Shown: positions 7,745-11,815 of the stretch, piece after piece
How positions within the stretch are numbered: position 1 is the stretch's first letter
How the letters are laid out: each line of letters opens with the position of its first letter
The notes under the pieces: generated by a model
What the model saw: the letters and a program-made list of their open reading frames with translations, nothing else
Database searches by the model: none
What the model was told of the DNA's origin: nothing
Virus record (IMG/VR): IMGVR_UViG_2547132278_000012
Coordinates: 1-17,675 of that record
Origin: a virus
Taxonomy: Duplodnaviria > Heunggongvirae > Uroviricota > Caudoviricetes
Strand: one strand, 5' to 3'
Length of the DNA: 17,675 nucleotides
Program-made: the position numbers and the translations under genes

Positions 7745-7783
7745 AATGATTCCATACATAGTAGGTATGGAATCATTTTGACG
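7745..7783. promoter_or_regulatory. Palindromic element AATGATTCCATAC-N7-GTATGGAATCATT, upstream of the recombinase promoter
   Basis: Perfect 13-bp inverted repeat. The right arm plus flank (GTATGGAATCATTTTGACG) recurs at 10580-10598 and 11592-11610. Confidence 0.45.
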
Positions 7784-7822
7784 TTGTTTTTTGAATTTTA
7801 AGGGAAATGGGAGTGAGTTTGG

Positions 7823-7852
7823 TGGGAATAAAAACGGCTCCTGTGAGCCGTT
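7823..7852 (-). terminator. Rho-independent terminator downstream of the glutaredoxin gene
   Basis: Minus-strand hairpin AACGGCTC-acag-GAGCCGTT followed by TTTTTATT, a few bp after the stop at 7857-7859. Confidence 0.6.
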
Positions 7853-7856
7853 AAAA

Positions 7857-8102
7857 TCAGAGGGTGCTGACGTATGCAGCCAGTTCTGTGTATCCGCCAA
7901 TCGGCTGGCCATCGATCAGCACCTGGGGGATAGTCTCTACCGGTTTACCAACAATTTCACTTAGTTTTTCCTTGTTGATACCGGCAGTGGTGATGTCGAT
8001 GTACTCATAATCACCGTAGCCATGTCCCTTTAGTTGCTTCGCCAGCTCGACCGCACGTTTGCAGTATGAGCAGTTATCTCGTCCGTAGATAGTGATCGTC
8101 AT
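7857..8102 (-). CDS. Glutaredoxin (GrxA/NrdC-like), 81 aa; the ORF-track N-terminal extension to 8180 is rejected
   Basis: MTITIYGRDNCSYCKRAVELAKQL...GKPVETIPQVLIDGQPIGGYTELAAYV aligns with E. coli GrxA (CxxC active site, GKPVETVPQ, IGGYT). GAGG ribosome-binding site before ATG at 8102. Confidence 0.85.
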   Translation of the reverse strand: MTITIYGRDNCSYCKRAVELAKQLKGHGYGDYEYIDITTAGINKEKLSEIVGKPVETIPQVLIDGQPIGGYTELAAYVSTL

Positions 8103-8144
8103 TGTTACCTCATAGAATTGATATGCAACTTTACTTACAAAGAA

Positions 8145-8166
8145 GATAGGTATGTGCATACTTATC
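8145..8166. promoter_or_regulatory. Dyad GATAGGTA-N6-TACTTATC, centred about 53 bp upstream of the glutaredoxin ATG
   Basis: One of four copies of the same dyad. Same spacing to the start codon as the copy at 14649-14670. Followed on the minus strand by TTCTTTGTAAG. Confidence 0.45.
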
Positions 8167-8276
8167 TTTGCAGTCTGCATTATAAAGCTATTAAAGCCTC
8201 GATCAATCTATTAATTAAGGCATTGTTTGGTTAACATTAGCCTAATAATTTATAGTTAGTAGAGTGAAATACATAC

Positions 8277-9539
8277 ATGCCTTTTTTAATTTTCATTATT
8301 ATACTACTGCTCACCGTTATTTTTTGGGATTGGGTTGTTTTAAATGGTCAAACTGTTGGAACATTGGCTACAGCATTTGCTTTTATAGCAACAGCATGGA
8401 ATGCCTACGAAGCGAGAAAAAGTGCAAAAGCAGCTTTTTCAGCCCTTCAATTAACAACTGAATCATTGTTCGAAATGCGAAAGAGTGCATTTAAACAATG
8501 GTTTGATTCCTTATTAAATCAACATGATGCGTTATGTCTTCTTGCAAAACAAATTATCGATAAACACAAAATTAATTTAAACAGCGATGAGTTACATAGA
8601 CTCTATTACCCATTGGTAAAACAGCATGAGGTAATACAGTATGTGAAGCATATTATTAATATATTTGAGTATGTGGATAGTTCATTTTATATTGATGGGG
8701 AATGTCTCAAGGAAAAAAGAGCGTATGTGTCACAATTAATTTTTAAAATCCCACCTCAGATGAAGTTGATCATTGCTATCTTTGGATTAAAAATCGATTA
8801 TTGTGAACATATTAATTCGGAAAAACTGTGTTGTTTATTGAATAAATATGATTTTTTCAATGATGAAATATTTTTTGATGATGCTTATTCAAATATGCCT
8901 TATCTGGATACATTCATAAACCTTAGATTCAATAAAATATTCAAATCTCGAATGATAAATTATTTTGATAATATCATTAAAAGTTATTATGTTCCATCGG
9001 ACGTTAAAAGGGACTGGATGTTTCGACGCCCACAGCTCGTACCGTCGGTTCTTATGAATTATAAAACTCCTTGTTCTCCTATAATTAATGATTACTTTGA
9101 GAAGTTGCCTTTACATGTAAGAAACTACTTTGAGGAACAACTTAAAACCGCGAATGATAGAGTTACTCATTTTGACGTTTACATCCCACGCCTTATTGGT
9201 TGTTCAATCGTGCAACATTACGAAGATGTGCCTTCCGAAAAAAACAGGTTAAATGACAGGAATGATGTAATAGCTATGGCTGAAGATTACATCGAGAAAA
9301 GAAAATCTAATCAACTAGATTACATACTTGAAGATATATACTTCAAGAGTGACGAAGATATAATCCCAGGCCACCATTTGATTGTGGCATTTGATGACTA
9401 TGAATTTAAATTATCACTCATTAAGATAAATGAGAATAAAGATAGCGATAATCTTTTAAATCGAATTTATACTGAATCCAGTAGCATGGTTAAAGAATAT
9501 AAGCGCGAAATATTAAAACTGGGCGACTATGTAAAGTAA
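8277..9539 (+). CDS. AT-rich membrane-anchored protein of unknown function (two N-terminal hydrophobic helices, then about 370 aa soluble domain)
   Basis: 420-aa ORF; the only long plus-strand gene in this half. Markedly lower GC than its neighbours by eye. N-terminus FLIFIIILLLTVIFWDWVV then VGTLATAFAFIATAW. Has its own terminator. Confidence 0.7.
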   Translation: MPFLIFIIILLLTVIFWDWVVLNGQTVGTLATAFAFIATAWNAYEARKSAKAAFSALQLTTESLFEMRKSAFKQWFDSLLNQHDALCLLAKQIIDKHKINLNSDELHRLYYPLVKQHEVIQYVKHIINIFEYVDSSFYIDGECLKEKRAYVSQLIFKIPPQMKLIIAIFGLKIDYCEHINSEKLCCLLNKYDFFNDEIFFDDAYSNMPYLDTFINLRFNKIFKSRMINYFDNIIKSYYVPSDVKRDWMFRRPQLVPSVLMNYKTPCSPIINDYFEKLPLHVRNYFEEQLKTANDRVTHFDVYIPRLIGCSIVQHYEDVPSEKNRLNDRNDVIAMAEDYIEKRKSNQLDYILEDIYFKSDEDIIPGHHLIVAFDDYEFKLSLIKINENKDSDNLLNRIYTESSSMVKEYKREILKLGDYVK

Positions 9540-9554
9540 ATTGCACTGTTCAAC

Positions 9555-9585
9555 AAAAAAGGGGCCGAAGCCCCTTTGAATTTTG
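9555..9585. terminator. Bidirectional rho-independent terminator (AAAGGGGC-cgaa-GCCCCTTT)
   Basis: GC stem with tetraloop, A-run upstream and T-rich tract downstream. Closes the 420-aa gene on the plus strand and the tRNA transcript on the minus strand. Confidence 0.75.
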
Positions 9586-9651
9586 CGCTGAAAAAAGTGT
9601 TGCTAAGATGTTAGCAAGCTATGGTTAAGAACGTCTGCCGTAATTATCTAT

Positions 9652-9729
9652 CACAGCGTTGAGCGGTCTGGTTTATGTTAGCGGAGTCTTAATCGAGTTG
9701 ATTAAAAGGCCAAACCGCTCAACGCTGTG
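9652..9729. repeat. Long inverted repeat, 16-bp perfect arms (CACAGCGTTGAGCGGT) around a 46-nt loop, 3 nt from the tRNA-Ser 3' end
   Basis: Arms at 9652-9667 and 9714-9729 are exact reverse complements. Arm sequence resembles the repeats at 10652 and 9918/10049. Confidence 0.5.
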
Positions 9730-10385: not shown

Positions 10386-10575
10386 AATTCAGCACTGCCA
10401 GTATTTATTACTCAACAGTGCCAATCGCGACGGTTTAGTTTCTGCCAGGAAACGCACCGCTACTTGCACTTTTCGTTAGTGCCAGACGCTTTCGACTTCG
10501 CTCAATAGTAGAAGGCAAAATCTTTAAGTAGATGATGTTTCTGAGGACAGCACCTACTTTGTAATTTATACAATG

Positions 10576-10598
10576 TGATGTATGGAATCATTTGTTGT
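10576..10598. promoter_or_regulatory. Second copy of the GATGTATGGAATCATTT element (minus strand contains ATGATTCCATACATC)
   Basis: Shares 17 or more nt with the copies at 7765 and 11589. Lies in the 750-bp non-coding leader upstream of the tRNA cluster. Confidence 0.35.
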
Positions 10599-10651
10599 GA
10601 AAACAGGCACCAATGGCAACAGTGGTTAAACCTACACAACAATCCCGTCTT

Positions 10652-10773
10652 CACAACGTTGAGGCCACTACTCCGATTGAATGTTTGCCCAACATGTTAC
10701 ATATCAACGCTCGCCGGTATCTCTGTGAATAGAACCTTAGAATTGATAAAAATGTAATGGCCTCAACGTTGTG
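10652..10773. repeat. Long-range perfect 15-bp inverted repeat CACAACGTTGAGGCC / GGCCTCAACGTTGTG around a 92-nt loop
   Basis: Arms at 10652-10666 and 10759-10773 are exact reverse complements. Arm sequence is related to the repeat at 9652. Confidence 0.5.
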
Positions 10774-10934
10774 TGCTGGCTAACCATACCAGCCGGGCTA
10801 CGTCGCCGCTTTTTAACCCAGTATAAACGACATAATTGAACAAAATGACGTAACAGGATGGGCGGTCAGTGGCTAAGAATCCGGGAGTCATATGGAGTTG
10901 AAAATATACCAACCGCCCATTCTGTTACTTCATC

Positions 10935-10958
10935 GGAGGGAACATGAATGTTCCCTCC
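10935..10958. repeat. Perfect 24-bp palindrome GGAGGGAACAT-GA-ATGTTCCCTCC, preceded by a 9-bp-stem hairpin (10858-10920)
   Basis: 11-bp arms with 2-bp spacer. Sits in non-coding DNA, which points to a protein-binding site or cruciform rather than a terminator. Confidence 0.5.
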
Positions 10959-11131
10959 TGCGTTCTGCAATCACACTCGCTCAGTGTGTCCCATTTCGGT
11001 AACGAGGCTGGAAACTGACCTCGCTGGTGTTTGGCTTATTAGGCTACTGCCAGATAGACTTCTTCGTTTGCACTTGTATTTAAGTTCAAACAGTCGCGTC
11101 TCAACGAAAACAAAGTCATCTTATACACAAA

Positions 11132-11153
11132 AGATAAGTAAGTAAATACTTAT
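11132..11153. promoter_or_regulatory. Dyad GATAAGTA-N6-TACTTATC, best copy, directly downstream of the 96-aa ORF
   Basis: Perfect 8-bp arms. Followed on the minus strand by TTTTGTGTATAAG, as at the other copies. Confidence 0.4.
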
Positions 11154-11163
11154 CGTTGTATTT

Positions 11164-11454
11164 TTATTCGGTTGTGACTTTTTTGATCAAGGCCACTCTA
11201 CGACTAGGTGTTCTTGTGATGGTGGCAGTGAATCGTTTCGCTTGGATAGTAATGGTTTCGTTCTCCTTAAGTTGCCCGTAGCGAGTTTCCACCAGGGTGC
11301 CAAGACGCCACAGACCATCATCGATACGTTTATGACTAGCAAATTTAATCAGCAACAGTTTTACGACTAACTGACCTACGTAAAAGGCGAATGCGACTCC
11401 GGCCGCTAAGAAATAGGTGGCCAACCACCATTCCCAAGAAGTTAAATTGCTCAT
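11164..11454 (-). CDS. Small membrane protein (96 aa, one predicted transmembrane helix)
   Basis: WEWWLATYFLAAGVAFAFYVGQLVV hydrophobic segment. ATG overlaps the stop of the upstream 50-aa ORF. Confidence 0.5.
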   Translation of the reverse strand: MSNLTSWEWWLATYFLAAGVAFAFYVGQLVVKLLLIKFASHKRIDDGLWRLGTLVETRYGQLKENETITIQAKRFTATITRTPSRRVALIKKVTTE

Positions 11455-11603
11455 TTTTTCACCTTTGTTTCATGAACTACCCGATACACACGCTTTCCGA
11501 TGCACAGTGTTTTGGTTTTAAGTTCCTGCTTAATTAAATCACGACAGATGCCGAAGCCGATAAGGAAGCCACCCATAAAAGCTAATGAGATGTATGGAAT
11601 CAT
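11451..11603 (-). CDS. Small hydrophobic peptide (50 aa, MIPYISLAFMGGFLIGFGICRDL...); below the ORF-track length cutoff
   Basis: Translated by hand. AGGAG ribosome-binding site 7 nt before the ATG. Start overlaps the upstream stop and stop overlaps the downstream start. Confidence 0.4.
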   Translation of the reverse strand: MIPYISLAFMGGFLIGFGICRDLIKQELKTKTLCIGKRVYRVVHETKVKK

Positions 11604-11815
11604 TTTAACGCTCCTGATTCTACTAATTGCTGTAGCAATACTTTCCCTTTATCAGTTAACTGGTAGTTGGCCGAACACCACGTTTCAGAAACGTTTGCAA
11701 CCAACCCTAAACGCTCTAACTTAGCTCGCGTTTTAGGCTTCCAGTACTCAGGGAACTCCGGCCACTTACTGATTTCATGAAGCGTTTCCTTCTCCCGTTT
11801 ACTTAATACGATCAT
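11600..11815 (-). CDS. Hypothetical 71-aa protein
   Basis: ORF embedded in a chain of overlapping start/stop junctions. No recognisable motif. Confidence 0.45.
   Translation of the reverse strand: MIVLSKREKETLHEISKWPEFPEYWKPKTRAKLERLGLVANVSETWCSANYQLTDKGKVLLQQLVESGALK

Follow-up and report, generated by a model that had tools for sequence, protein, structure and literature searches.

A perfect inverted repeat beside the integrase gene of an SSU5-like phage-plasmid, and lone copies of its arm: a candidate recombination site with possible outlying half-sites

The DNA analysed here (the window; 17,675 nt) is a fragment of an SSU5-like phage-plasmid, with IS100 on both flanks. It contains five good copies of a short motif, and a degenerate sixth within the integrase gene (int; Table 1). 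The first-pass annotation had listed four copies—GTATGGAATCATTT on the + strand at 7765, 10580 and 11592, and a reverse complement beginning at 7744/7745—all of which are real; the fifth (1715-1730) and the degenerate sixth (7030-7043) had been overlooked. Chance alone would give about 0.2 matches, and five were not reached in any of 200 shuffles. The closest complete plasmid, of 109 kb, has the motif solely in the corresponding stretch of ~14 kb. Two copies (7745-7757 and 7765-7777) form an inverted pair that is, as first described, perfect over 13 bp, around a spacer of 7 bp; folded as single-stranded DNA, this palindrome has a z-score of -7. The other four copies, A, I, C and D, stand alone. 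The frames opening with MIPY are, in agreement with the earlier count, 50, 29 and 19 codons long, and the 50-aa membrane ORF among them occupies 11451..11603; copy D, which covers its start, also overlaps the stop codon of a 71-aa ORF.

Table 1. Positions of the palindrome, the lone motif copies and the int features in the window.
Feature	Position	Strand	Remarks
Lone copy A	1715..1730	+	dnaE CDS, codons 84-89 (GCMESL); exact 16-mer; antisense to gene
Tyrosine recombinase Int	6543..7646	-	367 aa; Pfam PF00589
Degenerate copy I	7030..7043	+	in int CDS; TGATTCCAAACCCC here; peptide DVWNQ
LexA (SOS) box TACTGTTTACTTATACAGT	7674..7692	-	abuts -10 of int promoter; sole such site in window
Putative int promoter	7692..7720	-	-35 TTGATC 7715-7720, 17-nt spacer, -10 TAATAT 7692-7697; read from sequence
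Palindrome AATGATTCCATAC-ATAGTAG-GTATGGAATCATT (13-7-13)	7745..7777	.	inverted repeat; candidate core (crossover) site
int-proximal arm	7745..7757	+	inferred recombinase-binding element
Asymmetric 7-bp spacer	7758..7764	.	ATAGTAG (CTACTAT in int-sense orientation)
int-distal arm	7765..7777	-	
A/T-rich stretch past distal arm	7778..7806	.	pattern cAGAaTTtAAAAAA..TAA|arm
Lone copy C	10577..10592	-	AATGATTCCATACATC on gene-sense strand; intergenic, ~190 nt upstream of tRNA-Asn
Lone copy D	11589..11604	-	over start codon and first four codons (MIPYI) of 50-aa membrane ORF

Int has lambda-Int-like core-binding and catalytic domains. Across 45 homologues, R185, R284, R285 and Y316 are invariant, with K211 and H307 nearly so, and the top fold match of the AlphaFold model (pLDDT 86.6) is lambda Int on COC' DNA. 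The arm-binding domain PF13356 is absent from Int; among the homologues, it occurs only below 35% identity. The putative int promoter is kept in the Klebsiella alignment, and scores below the threshold of a consensus scan. It was here that the palindrome had first been placed; in fact, the palindrome lies ~24 nt upstream of the -35 box, and the element overlapping the promoter is the LexA box. The latter is kept in Klebsiella and K. oxytoca, and CTGT-N8-ACAG comes after the palindrome in 77 of 80 relatives; in the Enterobacteriaceae elements, int expression would thus be coupled to DNA damage.

An equivalent palindrome is present upstream of int in all 80 IMG/VR loci. It lies 50-140 bp upstream of the gene in elements from E. 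coli, Klebsiella, the K. oxytoca clade, Yersinia, Kluyvera, Buttiauxella, Nissabacter, Serratia, L222, Xenorhabdus, Providencia, Moellerella, Erwinia and Pantoea, and orthologous int loci down to 44-48% protein identity have a 13-7-13 or slightly shorter inverted repeat upstream. A scan of the 350 nt upstream of int in Photorhabdus L225 (Int 48% identical) revealed no 11-7-11 palindrome. Across lineages the spacer is always 7 bp long, while its sequence differs between lineages and its orientation is sometimes flipped. The two arms switch together: TGATTCCATAC accompanies Int proteins at least 57% identical, and TGACTCCAGAC those that are 44-48% identical. The link to the recombinase proposed in the first-pass annotation is borne out for the palindrome; that annotation had noted neither the co-variation of the arms with Int nor the core-site geometry of 13-7-13. 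Judging by this sequence evidence, the palindrome is probably where the neighbouring integrase recombines its DNA: a core site whose inverted 13-bp arms would bind Int and whose 7-bp spacer would hold the crossover. The COC' sites of the lambda-Int family have this geometry, and loxP and dif are counterparts in function.

Could the motif instead be the operator of a phage-plasmid transcription factor, with the palindrome as a dimer operator controlling int? There are two candidate proteins: an HTH protein (CYRAN_45 homologue; 6162..6548, + strand) whose gene adjoins int in every phage-plasmid lineage examined, and the 71-aa protein encoded upstream of D. The HTH protein is expressed in lysogens, and has been termed a putative repressor (PMC9928086). 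The palindrome does sit upstream of the int promoter, as an operator might. Asymmetric operators, at times paired, are known from C1 of phage P1. However, Erwinia and Pantoea (mega)plasmids keep the palindrome with neither the HTH neighbour nor nearby phage genes, leaving Int as its only constant partner, and arm co-variation follows Int there too. Further, a small HTH dimer would not typically use 13-bp arms spaced 20 bp centre to centre, Nissabacter lacks the 71-aa gene yet keeps copies D, C and A, and three of the four lone copies lie within genes rather than at promoters. A second palindrome family, GATAAGTA-N6-TACTTATC, found just downstream of promoter-like sites, is the better operator candidate. 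Control by such a factor is therefore an unlikely explanation of the motif.

If the palindrome is the integrase core site, this one site should be enough for Int to work as a simple recombinase, since the arm-binding domain found in its P4/lambda-type relatives has been lost. Given that the replicons are plasmid-prophages or megaplasmids, its likely role is resolution or circularisation, and not chromosomal integration: most plausibly, Int would resolve plasmid dimers and other multimers at the palindrome, or circularise incoming phage DNA. LexA control is odd for housekeeping dimer resolution, and counts against this role. The palindrome also borders the main cargo slot of these elements. The A/T-rich stretch past the distal arm marks the border of the variable cargo slot, and its pattern recurs in relatives with unrelated cargo DNA further out; homology with Cyrano and Klebsiella ends at 7795. 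This stretch is possibly an accessory or bending element.

The 14-mer TGATTCCATACATC is common to the lone copies, and at least eight lineages have it at the orthologous positions. Copy A is exact in Klebsiella, SSU5, Yersinia, Kluyvera, Nissabacter and Serratia, and missing from the K. oxytoca clade, whose DnaE loop differs there. Copy I is the exact 14-mer in Yersinia, Kluyvera, the K. oxytoca clade and L222. Copy C is found in Klebsiella, Kluyvera, Buttiauxella, Nissabacter, Serratia, L222 and the K. oxytoca clade, and carries one A-to-G change in SSU5. Copy D is exact in Klebsiella, SSU5, Kluyvera and Nissabacter, and shows synonymous drift in the K. oxytoca clade. Conservation thus extends well beyond the copy at 11589-11610. 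The original view that it resides in the nucleotides rather than the protein is upheld by copy C, which is identical (14/14) between the E. coli and Klebsiella elements while the 60-nt flanks on each side are 42-53% identical.

That the lone copies are chance matches, or neutral relics of recombination or duplication with no present function, is scarcely credible. Three of the four lie in coding sequence, so part of their conservation comes from coding (WNQ in Int, MIPYI in the 50-aa ORF, and likewise for A). Against neutrality stand the shuffles described above, the persistence of copy C in lineages whose flanks are essentially unalignable, and the synonymous positions within A and D, which are invariant while neighbouring codons vary. 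The recombination footprint that had been suggested is unlikely, in the sense of a relic, because of this strong purifying selection; furthermore, rearrangement joints at lone copies were not found among ~50 SSU5-like IMG/VR relatives.

The copies also show a constant polarity, which the first-pass annotation had not noted. Among exact 14-mers in the 80 loci, those upstream of the palindrome are all forward (100 forward, 0 reverse) and those downstream all reverse (82 reverse, 0 forward), and the arrangement D> C> P <I <A (P being the palindrome) is the same throughout. With only four independent positions, such polarity has a chance probability of ~1 in 8. This constancy bears on a shufflon-type reading: with a single arm conserved, the lone copies would be asymmetric recombination sites comparable to sfx of R64, at which Int would carry out programmed inversions or excisions of the segments between them. 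As with Rci/sfx, there are several sites with a single conserved arm (each here with three spacer-proximal bases, ATC), lying in both orientations around int; moreover, the 7-nt continuations of C and D are alike (ATCACAT and ATCTCAT). However, no recombinant flank combination occurs in the ~50 SSU5-like loci and no shufflon-like inversion variant was found in ~130 related loci, while inversion via A would break dnaE, inversion via I would break int, and the spacer-equivalent bases differ from the palindrome spacer. Taken with the fixed order, these points make programmed rearrangement very unlikely.

The lone copies hold the 11-13-nt arm sequence exactly, and are restricted to the clade whose palindrome has that arm type; no lone copies of either arm type were found in the Xenorhabdus, Providencia and Moellerella elements. 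In the K. oxytoca clade, both arms and copy C have TG directly on the 5' side of the arm sequence, where AA is found elsewhere. The simplest reading of these comparisons, though a somewhat doubtful one, is that the lone copies are extra integrase half-sites, each consisting of one arm plus a conserved ATC and each binding a single integrase molecule. No recombination would occur at them; their purpose would be regulatory or architectural, and tied to the central site, since all copies on either side point toward the palindrome. The ATC is kept in the lone copies and not in the palindrome arms, which hints at a constraint other than plain Int recognition. Phage SSU5, which lacks int and the palindrome and keeps three lone copies, also speaks against half-sites for Int; its evidence is weak because SSU5 is a recent 6.5-kb deletion derivative, with flanks 97.5% identical to a Kluyvera element. 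Overall, we lean slightly towards the combined explanation, in which Int would act on the palindrome and also bind the lone copies.

The ATC extension, present in all four lone copies, also counts in favour of a different proposal: that the lone copies act as RNA. A leader-derived RNA would base-pair in trans with the dnaE and int mRNAs, and in this way dampen lytic replication and recombinase synthesis. The tRNA-operon leader (C) and the initiation region of the 50-aa ORF (D) carry UGAUUCCAUACAUC, and the dnaE mRNA (A) and, in most lineages, the int mRNA (I) carry its exact complement, giving perfect complementarity of 14-16 nt between sense-strand C/D and A/I. The non-coding stretch that holds copy C, upstream of the tRNA genes, is long and has conserved hairpins near the copy; a promoter-like site near 11187 (-35 TTGATC) is located upstream of it, ~30 nt upstream of a palindrome at 11133-11154. 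The only substitution seen in C, that of SSU5, would retain a G-U pair. Expression of the tRNA region has been reported in LF82 lysogens (PMC9928086). On the other hand, pairing leaves the match to the integrase binding arm unexplained, as a one-in-millions coincidence, and a DNA-level role accounts just as well for copies that point toward the palindrome. Additionally, there is no Rfam family at C, copy D is part of an mRNA and not of an sRNA, and in the K. oxytoca clade A is missing and D has drifted. The immunity RNAs c4 of P1 and CI of P4, products of RNase P processing, are a loose parallel; on balance, we regard a role as RNA as improbable.

Several known systems resemble the proposed arrangement of core site and half-sites. 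The lambda Int-COC' complex (crystal structures 1z1b and 1z19) shares two inverted recombinase-binding elements with a 7-bp overlap, and its recombinase is the best fold match, with the catalytic residues kept. The present system differs in having neither an arm-binding domain nor clustered arm-type sites, and its arms are longer and perfectly symmetric. Integron platforms likewise consist of an SOS-controlled tyrosine recombinase gene with a site directly upstream and highly variable cargo adjoining. Here, however, there is no attC or cassette structure, the recombinase is lambda/P4-like rather than IntI-like, homology ends ~18-28 nt beyond the arm and not in the spacer, and the cargo comprises whole operons and IS elements.

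Two further systems offer precedents for the lone copies. In Bacillus subtilis, XerD is described as binding scattered, non-recombining sites (XDS) around dif (Karaboja 2021, as presented in PMC10945525); there, too, a tyrosine recombinase is served by one full crossover site and by extra sites dispersed in the surrounding region. The XDS sites are chromosomal and serve SMC unloading, whereas ours span ~10 kb on a 110-kb plasmid with no known SMC link. In phage SPbeta, MrpR (YopR) is a master repressor of tyrosine-recombinase fold whose ~15-bp element, SPBRE, recurs at several places in the prophage genome (PMC10516654); SroF of phi3T, another recombinase-fold master repressor, is among the fold matches of Int. 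MrpR has lost the catalytic residues and has its sites in promoters, whereas Int keeps them, most lone copies lie in genes, there is a full palindromic core site, and int is predicted to be SOS-induced rather than expressed in lysogeny.

In its layout, the system is also close to Cre/loxP of P1: a phage-plasmid has one simple tyrosine recombinase, and a short way upstream of the recombinase gene a single site with 13-bp inverted arms. Here, however, the spacer measures 7 bp rather than 8, and int is under predicted LexA control. Int and Cre have no detectable sequence similarity, and in the fold search Cre comes far behind lambda Int; lone half-sites are not known from P1. The job expected of Int is the same as that of Cre/loxP, and of Dre/rox and Vika/vox: dimer resolution and circularisation.

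The first-pass annotation described a repeated element in the window, and the coordinates and sequences that it gave are correct: the inverted pair is a perfect 13-7-13 palindrome, and the frames beginning MIPY run to 50, 29 and 19 codons. The repetition is far above chance (0.2 matches expected, with none of 200 shuffles reaching the observed count), and these shuffle controls rule out a chance origin. Two more copies are present: (i) a fifth exact copy of the 16-mer (copy A), within dnaE and in the opposite orientation, and (ii) a degenerate sixth copy (copy I), within int, the gene for the tyrosine recombinase Int. 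Together with copies C and D, these are referred to here as lone copies; P1 and P2 are the arms of the palindrome upstream of int (Table). A search of relatives shows that motif copies recur in Klebsiella, SSU5, Kluyvera, Yersinia, Buttiauxella, Nissabacter, Serratia, locus L222 and, in part, the K. oxytoca clade. Across the whole of a complete 109-kb relative, no copy was found outside this region; the motif is limited to ~14 kb of that plasmid, ruling out a genome-wide operator set like that of P1 C1.

Table. Positions of the features discussed (in the window, unless a relative's locus is named).
Feature	Position	Strand	Remarks
IS100 (IS21-family) sequence	1-366 and 16996-17675		
28-nt inverted repeat	339-366/16996-17023		marks of two IS ends
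Lone copy A	1715-1730		in dnaE
HTH gene (CYRAN_45 homologue)	6162..6548	+	convergent with int
int	6543..7646	-	Int, 367 aa
Lone copy I	7030-7043		in int
Consensus LexA box TACTGTTTACTTATACAGT	7674-7692	-	abuts -10 of int promoter
Putative int promoter TTGATC-N17-TAATAT			~24 nt downstream of palindrome
Palindrome (arms P1, P2)	7745-7777		upstream of int
A/T-rich pattern cAGAaTTtAAAAAA...TAA	7778-7806		adjoins int-distal arm
Second palindrome family, GATAAGTA-N6-TACTTATC	8145-8166, 11133-11154, 14649-14670		weaker copy at 14976-14997
420-aa ORF	8277-9539	+	in cargo slot
Repeats near tRNA genes	9652-9729, 9914-10066, 10647-10773, 10988-11157		
Lone copy C	10577-10592		intergenic
Lone copy D	11589-11604		start of 50-aa ORF
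caf1 operon, locus L138	3113-8241		int at 9001
Anti-defence-like/PhoH/YafO cargo, locus L222	7043-8784		
Anti-defence-like/PhoH/YafO cargo, locus L223	6575-7153, 8805-9263		
Anti-defence-like/PhoH/YafO cargo, locus L224	8422-8667		

The palindrome is linked to the integrase gene across many lineages. A 13-7-13 (or slightly shorter) palindrome lies 50–140 bp upstream of the orthologous int in Klebsiella, the K. oxytoca clade, Yersinia, Kluyvera, Buttiauxella, Nissabacter, Xenorhabdus, Providencia, Serratia, L222, Moellerella, Erwinia and Pantoea, and one is found upstream of int in all 80 of the IMG/VR loci examined. A scan upstream of int in a Photorhabdus locus (Int 48%) found no palindrome. 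The idea that some loci carry a second full site was rejected: the extra matches have one mismatch and lie in cargo DNA, and each of the 80 loci has just one palindrome. Loci whose Int shares at least 57% identity with that of the window have TGATTCCATAC as the arm sequence, and those at 44–48% have TGACTCCAGAC; both arms switch together with Int, including on plasmids that lack the neighbouring HTH gene. In Erwinia and Pantoea the palindrome is found on non-phage megaplasmids, has unrelated genes around it and lacks the HTH neighbour; Int is therefore its sole constant partner.

The spacer is 7 bp in every lineage in which the palindrome was found, and its sequence is lineage-dependent; reverse-complementing the Buttiauxella spacer gives exactly that of Yersinia/Kluyvera. 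This pattern is consistent with an asymmetric crossover region flanked by symmetric arms, and the length fits the 7-bp overlap of the lambda/P4 family. The locus shows three marks expected of a simple core site of the lox/dif/COC' type: (i) two inverted elements of ~11–13 bp around an asymmetric spacer of 6–8 bp (13-7-13 in the window), (ii) co-variation of site and recombinase across lineages, and (iii) a neighbouring gene for a tyrosine recombinase with its catalytic residues. Judged from these comparisons, the palindrome is probably the core recombination site of a widespread SSU5-like phage-plasmid/megaplasmid integrase. Cre/loxP of P1 is a precedent for multimer resolution and circularisation; by this analogy, and given that several kinds of plasmid carry the pair, we infer that Int and the palindrome may act in multimer resolution or genome circularisation.

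The protein itself carries a PF00589 domain (Pfam), and residues R185, K211, R284, H307 and Y316 are conserved in 45 homologues. The best fold match of its confident AlphaFold model (pLDDT 86.6) is lambda integrase on the COC' core site (1e-7). The arm-binding domain PF13356 is absent from Int and its close family, occurring only in homologues less than 35% identical. With this domain content, these residues and this fold, Int is probably a lambda/P4-type enzyme turned simple, arm-independent recombinase.

A putative promoter and a LexA box accompany the palindrome. The box is kept in Klebsiella and K. oxytoca, and 77 of 80 relatives have CTGT-N8-ACAG after the palindrome, suggesting that int is under SOS control; the box agrees with the reported induction of Cyrano by ciprofloxacin (PMC9928086). 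On the distal side of the palindrome there are ~28 nt with a degenerate A/T-rich pattern, and the DNA beyond is unrelated between elements. The pattern adjoins the int-distal arm both in the window and at the equivalent position in 54 distinct relatives. The unrelated DNA past it forms a cargo slot—its boundary ~18–28 nt beyond the arm—that holds operons and IS elements. In Y. pestis pMT1 CO92, for instance, the F1 capsule operon caf1R-caf1M-caf1A-caf1 is the cargo, located directly upstream of the palindrome and int. Elsewhere it contains Tad2-like and Acb2/Tad1-hairpin (anti-defence-like) genes, PhoH and the YafO toxin gene. In an earlier study, resistance genes were placed beside the PhoH and DNA-ligase gene families of such elements, in keeping with the same region. 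In the window, the slot includes a 420-aa ORF on the strand opposite to its neighbours, with no match in Pfam or NCBIfam and only phrog_18168 (function unknown) as a hit.

Comparison of the lone copies across relatives revealed two points of interest. Firstly, they are conserved. All contain the 14-mer TGATTCCATACATC; intergenic copy C is identical at 14/14 positions between E. coli and Klebsiella, with only 42–53% identity in the 60 nt on each side. The synonymous positions of A, D and (outside the E. coli lineage) I are all kept, where neighbouring codons vary. Elements with the other arm type (Moellerella, Xenorhabdus, Providencia) carry no lone copies, making a co-variation test uninformative for these. 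Secondly, the lone copies are polar. Read along the sense of int, the copies are arranged D> C> [P1> <P2] <I <A, each of them aimed at the palindrome. Over the 80 loci, exact copies upstream of the palindrome are 100 forward and 0 reverse, and those downstream 82 reverse and 0 forward, a count that rests on only four independent positions.

SSU5 has neither int nor the palindrome and keeps three lone copies; its deletion is recent, which makes it uninformative as an integrase-free control. Missing from this type phage is a 6.5-kb block (cargo, palindrome, int, HTH gene and 70-aa ORF) that is present in a 97.5%-identical Kluyvera plasmid (locus L135, 5427–11973; SSU5 is L007). Loss of this putative repressor module may have led to the isolation of SSU5 as a lytic phage. 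In a K. oxytoca plasmid with no intact tRNA genes (locus L008), a tRNA-like 3' fragment (GGTTCGAATCC...GCGCCA; 7030–7065) lies immediately upstream of copy C.

What, then, are the lone copies? The first-pass annotation had also entertained a recombination footprint, and comparison makes this unlikely: discordant flank pairs number 0 in ~50 IMG/VR loci, and the arrangement is constant in 80. Copies acting as recombination joints, or as mosaic or deletion breakpoints, are further ruled out by the location of the breaks: those in homology to Cyrano and Klebsiella fall at 7795 and about 10309/10758, away from the lone copies, and the SSU5 deletion ends also lie off them. A sigma-70 promoter element was rejected, since the candidate -10 downstream of C is not conserved in Klebsiella, SSU5 or K. 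oxytoca; a promoter scan at the lone copies found nothing. Translated MIPY leader peptides were likewise rejected, copy C having no Shine-Dalgarno sequence and the frames being of variable length. Rfam covariance models gave no match at the motif copies, and elsewhere only four tRNAs and sub-threshold matches.

The lone copies include an exact copy of the integrase arm, and most simply each would therefore be a site for a single Int molecule, with a non-recombination role. We propose this tentatively, as a possibility somewhat short of an even chance. A role in RNA pairing is kept alive by two observations: the three bases ATC follow the arm in all lone copies and not in the palindrome arms, and the sense-strand C and D copies are exactly complementary to A and I. 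An extension of single-Int binding, which we consider unlikely, is that the lone half-sites serve as polar landmarks: Int (or a partner reading the same 14-mer) would occupy single oriented copies flanking the crossover site. Such landmarks would guide a DNA-tracking process (replication forks, a translocase or SMC-like loop extrusion) to the resolution site or halt it nearby, as a plasmid-scale counterpart of KOPS/Ter/XDS around dif. In a variant, the same 14-mer would double as a trans-acting RNA seed that connects transcripts of the tRNA leader with the mRNAs of dnaE and int.

The bulk of the window, 16.6 kb, is SSU5-like phage-plasmid DNA from E. coli, 97–99% identical to plasmids such as pGMI17-003_2 and the phages Cyrano and CMS-2020a. 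IS100 cuts it at both ends, truncating dnaE (at about codon 538) and the primase gene. Most genes are on the minus strand, and the order is dnaE, two CobS/CobT-like genes, a 70-aa ORF, the integrase gene and the variable cargo stretch, followed by four tRNA genes, a long non-coding stretch, ORFs of 96, 50, 71 and 59 aa, and a ligase gene. A second palindrome family is also present. Its copies at 8145 and 11133 are just downstream of a promoter-like site with -35 TTGATC, and that at 14649 is ~40 nt upstream of the start of a 258-aa ORF; the family is a candidate prophage-repressor operator or set of weak terminators. Around the tRNA genes there are two long-range inverted repeats of 20 nt (CACAACGTTGAGG...), direct repeats related to them and sub-threshold tmRNA-like Rfam matches; these suggest that the 570 nt of non-coding DNA upstream of copy C encode structured RNAs not yet annotated.

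Phage-plasmids of the SSU5 type abound in Enterobacterales, and Int occurs on 948 plasmids in a single public collection, Y. pestis pMT1 and Salmonella plasmids among them. The searchable literature contains neither the motif string nor an SSU5 integrase site, and assigns no target site to this integrase. Naming a site yields a testable recombinase/site pair, lambda-like but arm-independent, that could serve as a genome-engineering tool. It would also place an SOS-controlled recombination site at the edge of a cargo slot where Y. pestis carries its F1 capsule operon and other relatives have anti-defence-like genes. The inward-pointing lone half-sites sit within essential replication and recombination genes; if bound by Int, they would add to the cases in which a recombinase serves as a site-specific DNA-binding factor.

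The proposed site differs from several known systems. The Cre/loxP family has a Cre-type protein and a 13-8-13 site, whereas the spacer here is 7 bp; a PDB sequence search with Int returned no Cre match, and Cre structures score E>0.01 in the fold search, versus 1e-7 for lambda Int. In a lambda/P4-type attP, arm sites are clustered by the core and read by an arm-binding domain; Int has no PF13356, and the lone copies lie kilobases away and carry core-arm sequence. An Rci/sfx shufflon is expected to produce inverted variants between sites, but none were seen in the flanks at ~50 loci or in order and orientation at 80. In an integron, attC-bounded cassettes lie beside intI, whereas the cargo here consists of operons and IS elements, and no attC-like repeats were seen. 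Nor does a P1 C1-like or HTH operator set match, whose sites would overlap the promoters of regulated operons and accompany the regulator gene: three of the four lone copies are within coding sequence, and Erwinia and Pantoea keep the palindrome but have no HTH gene beside it. For the lone copies, a possible analogy lies in recombinase-fold proteins at scattered, non-recombining sites, namely MrpR at SPBRE (PMC10516654) and, as cited in PMC10945525, XerD at XDS; here, the isolated sites are copies of the arm sequence.
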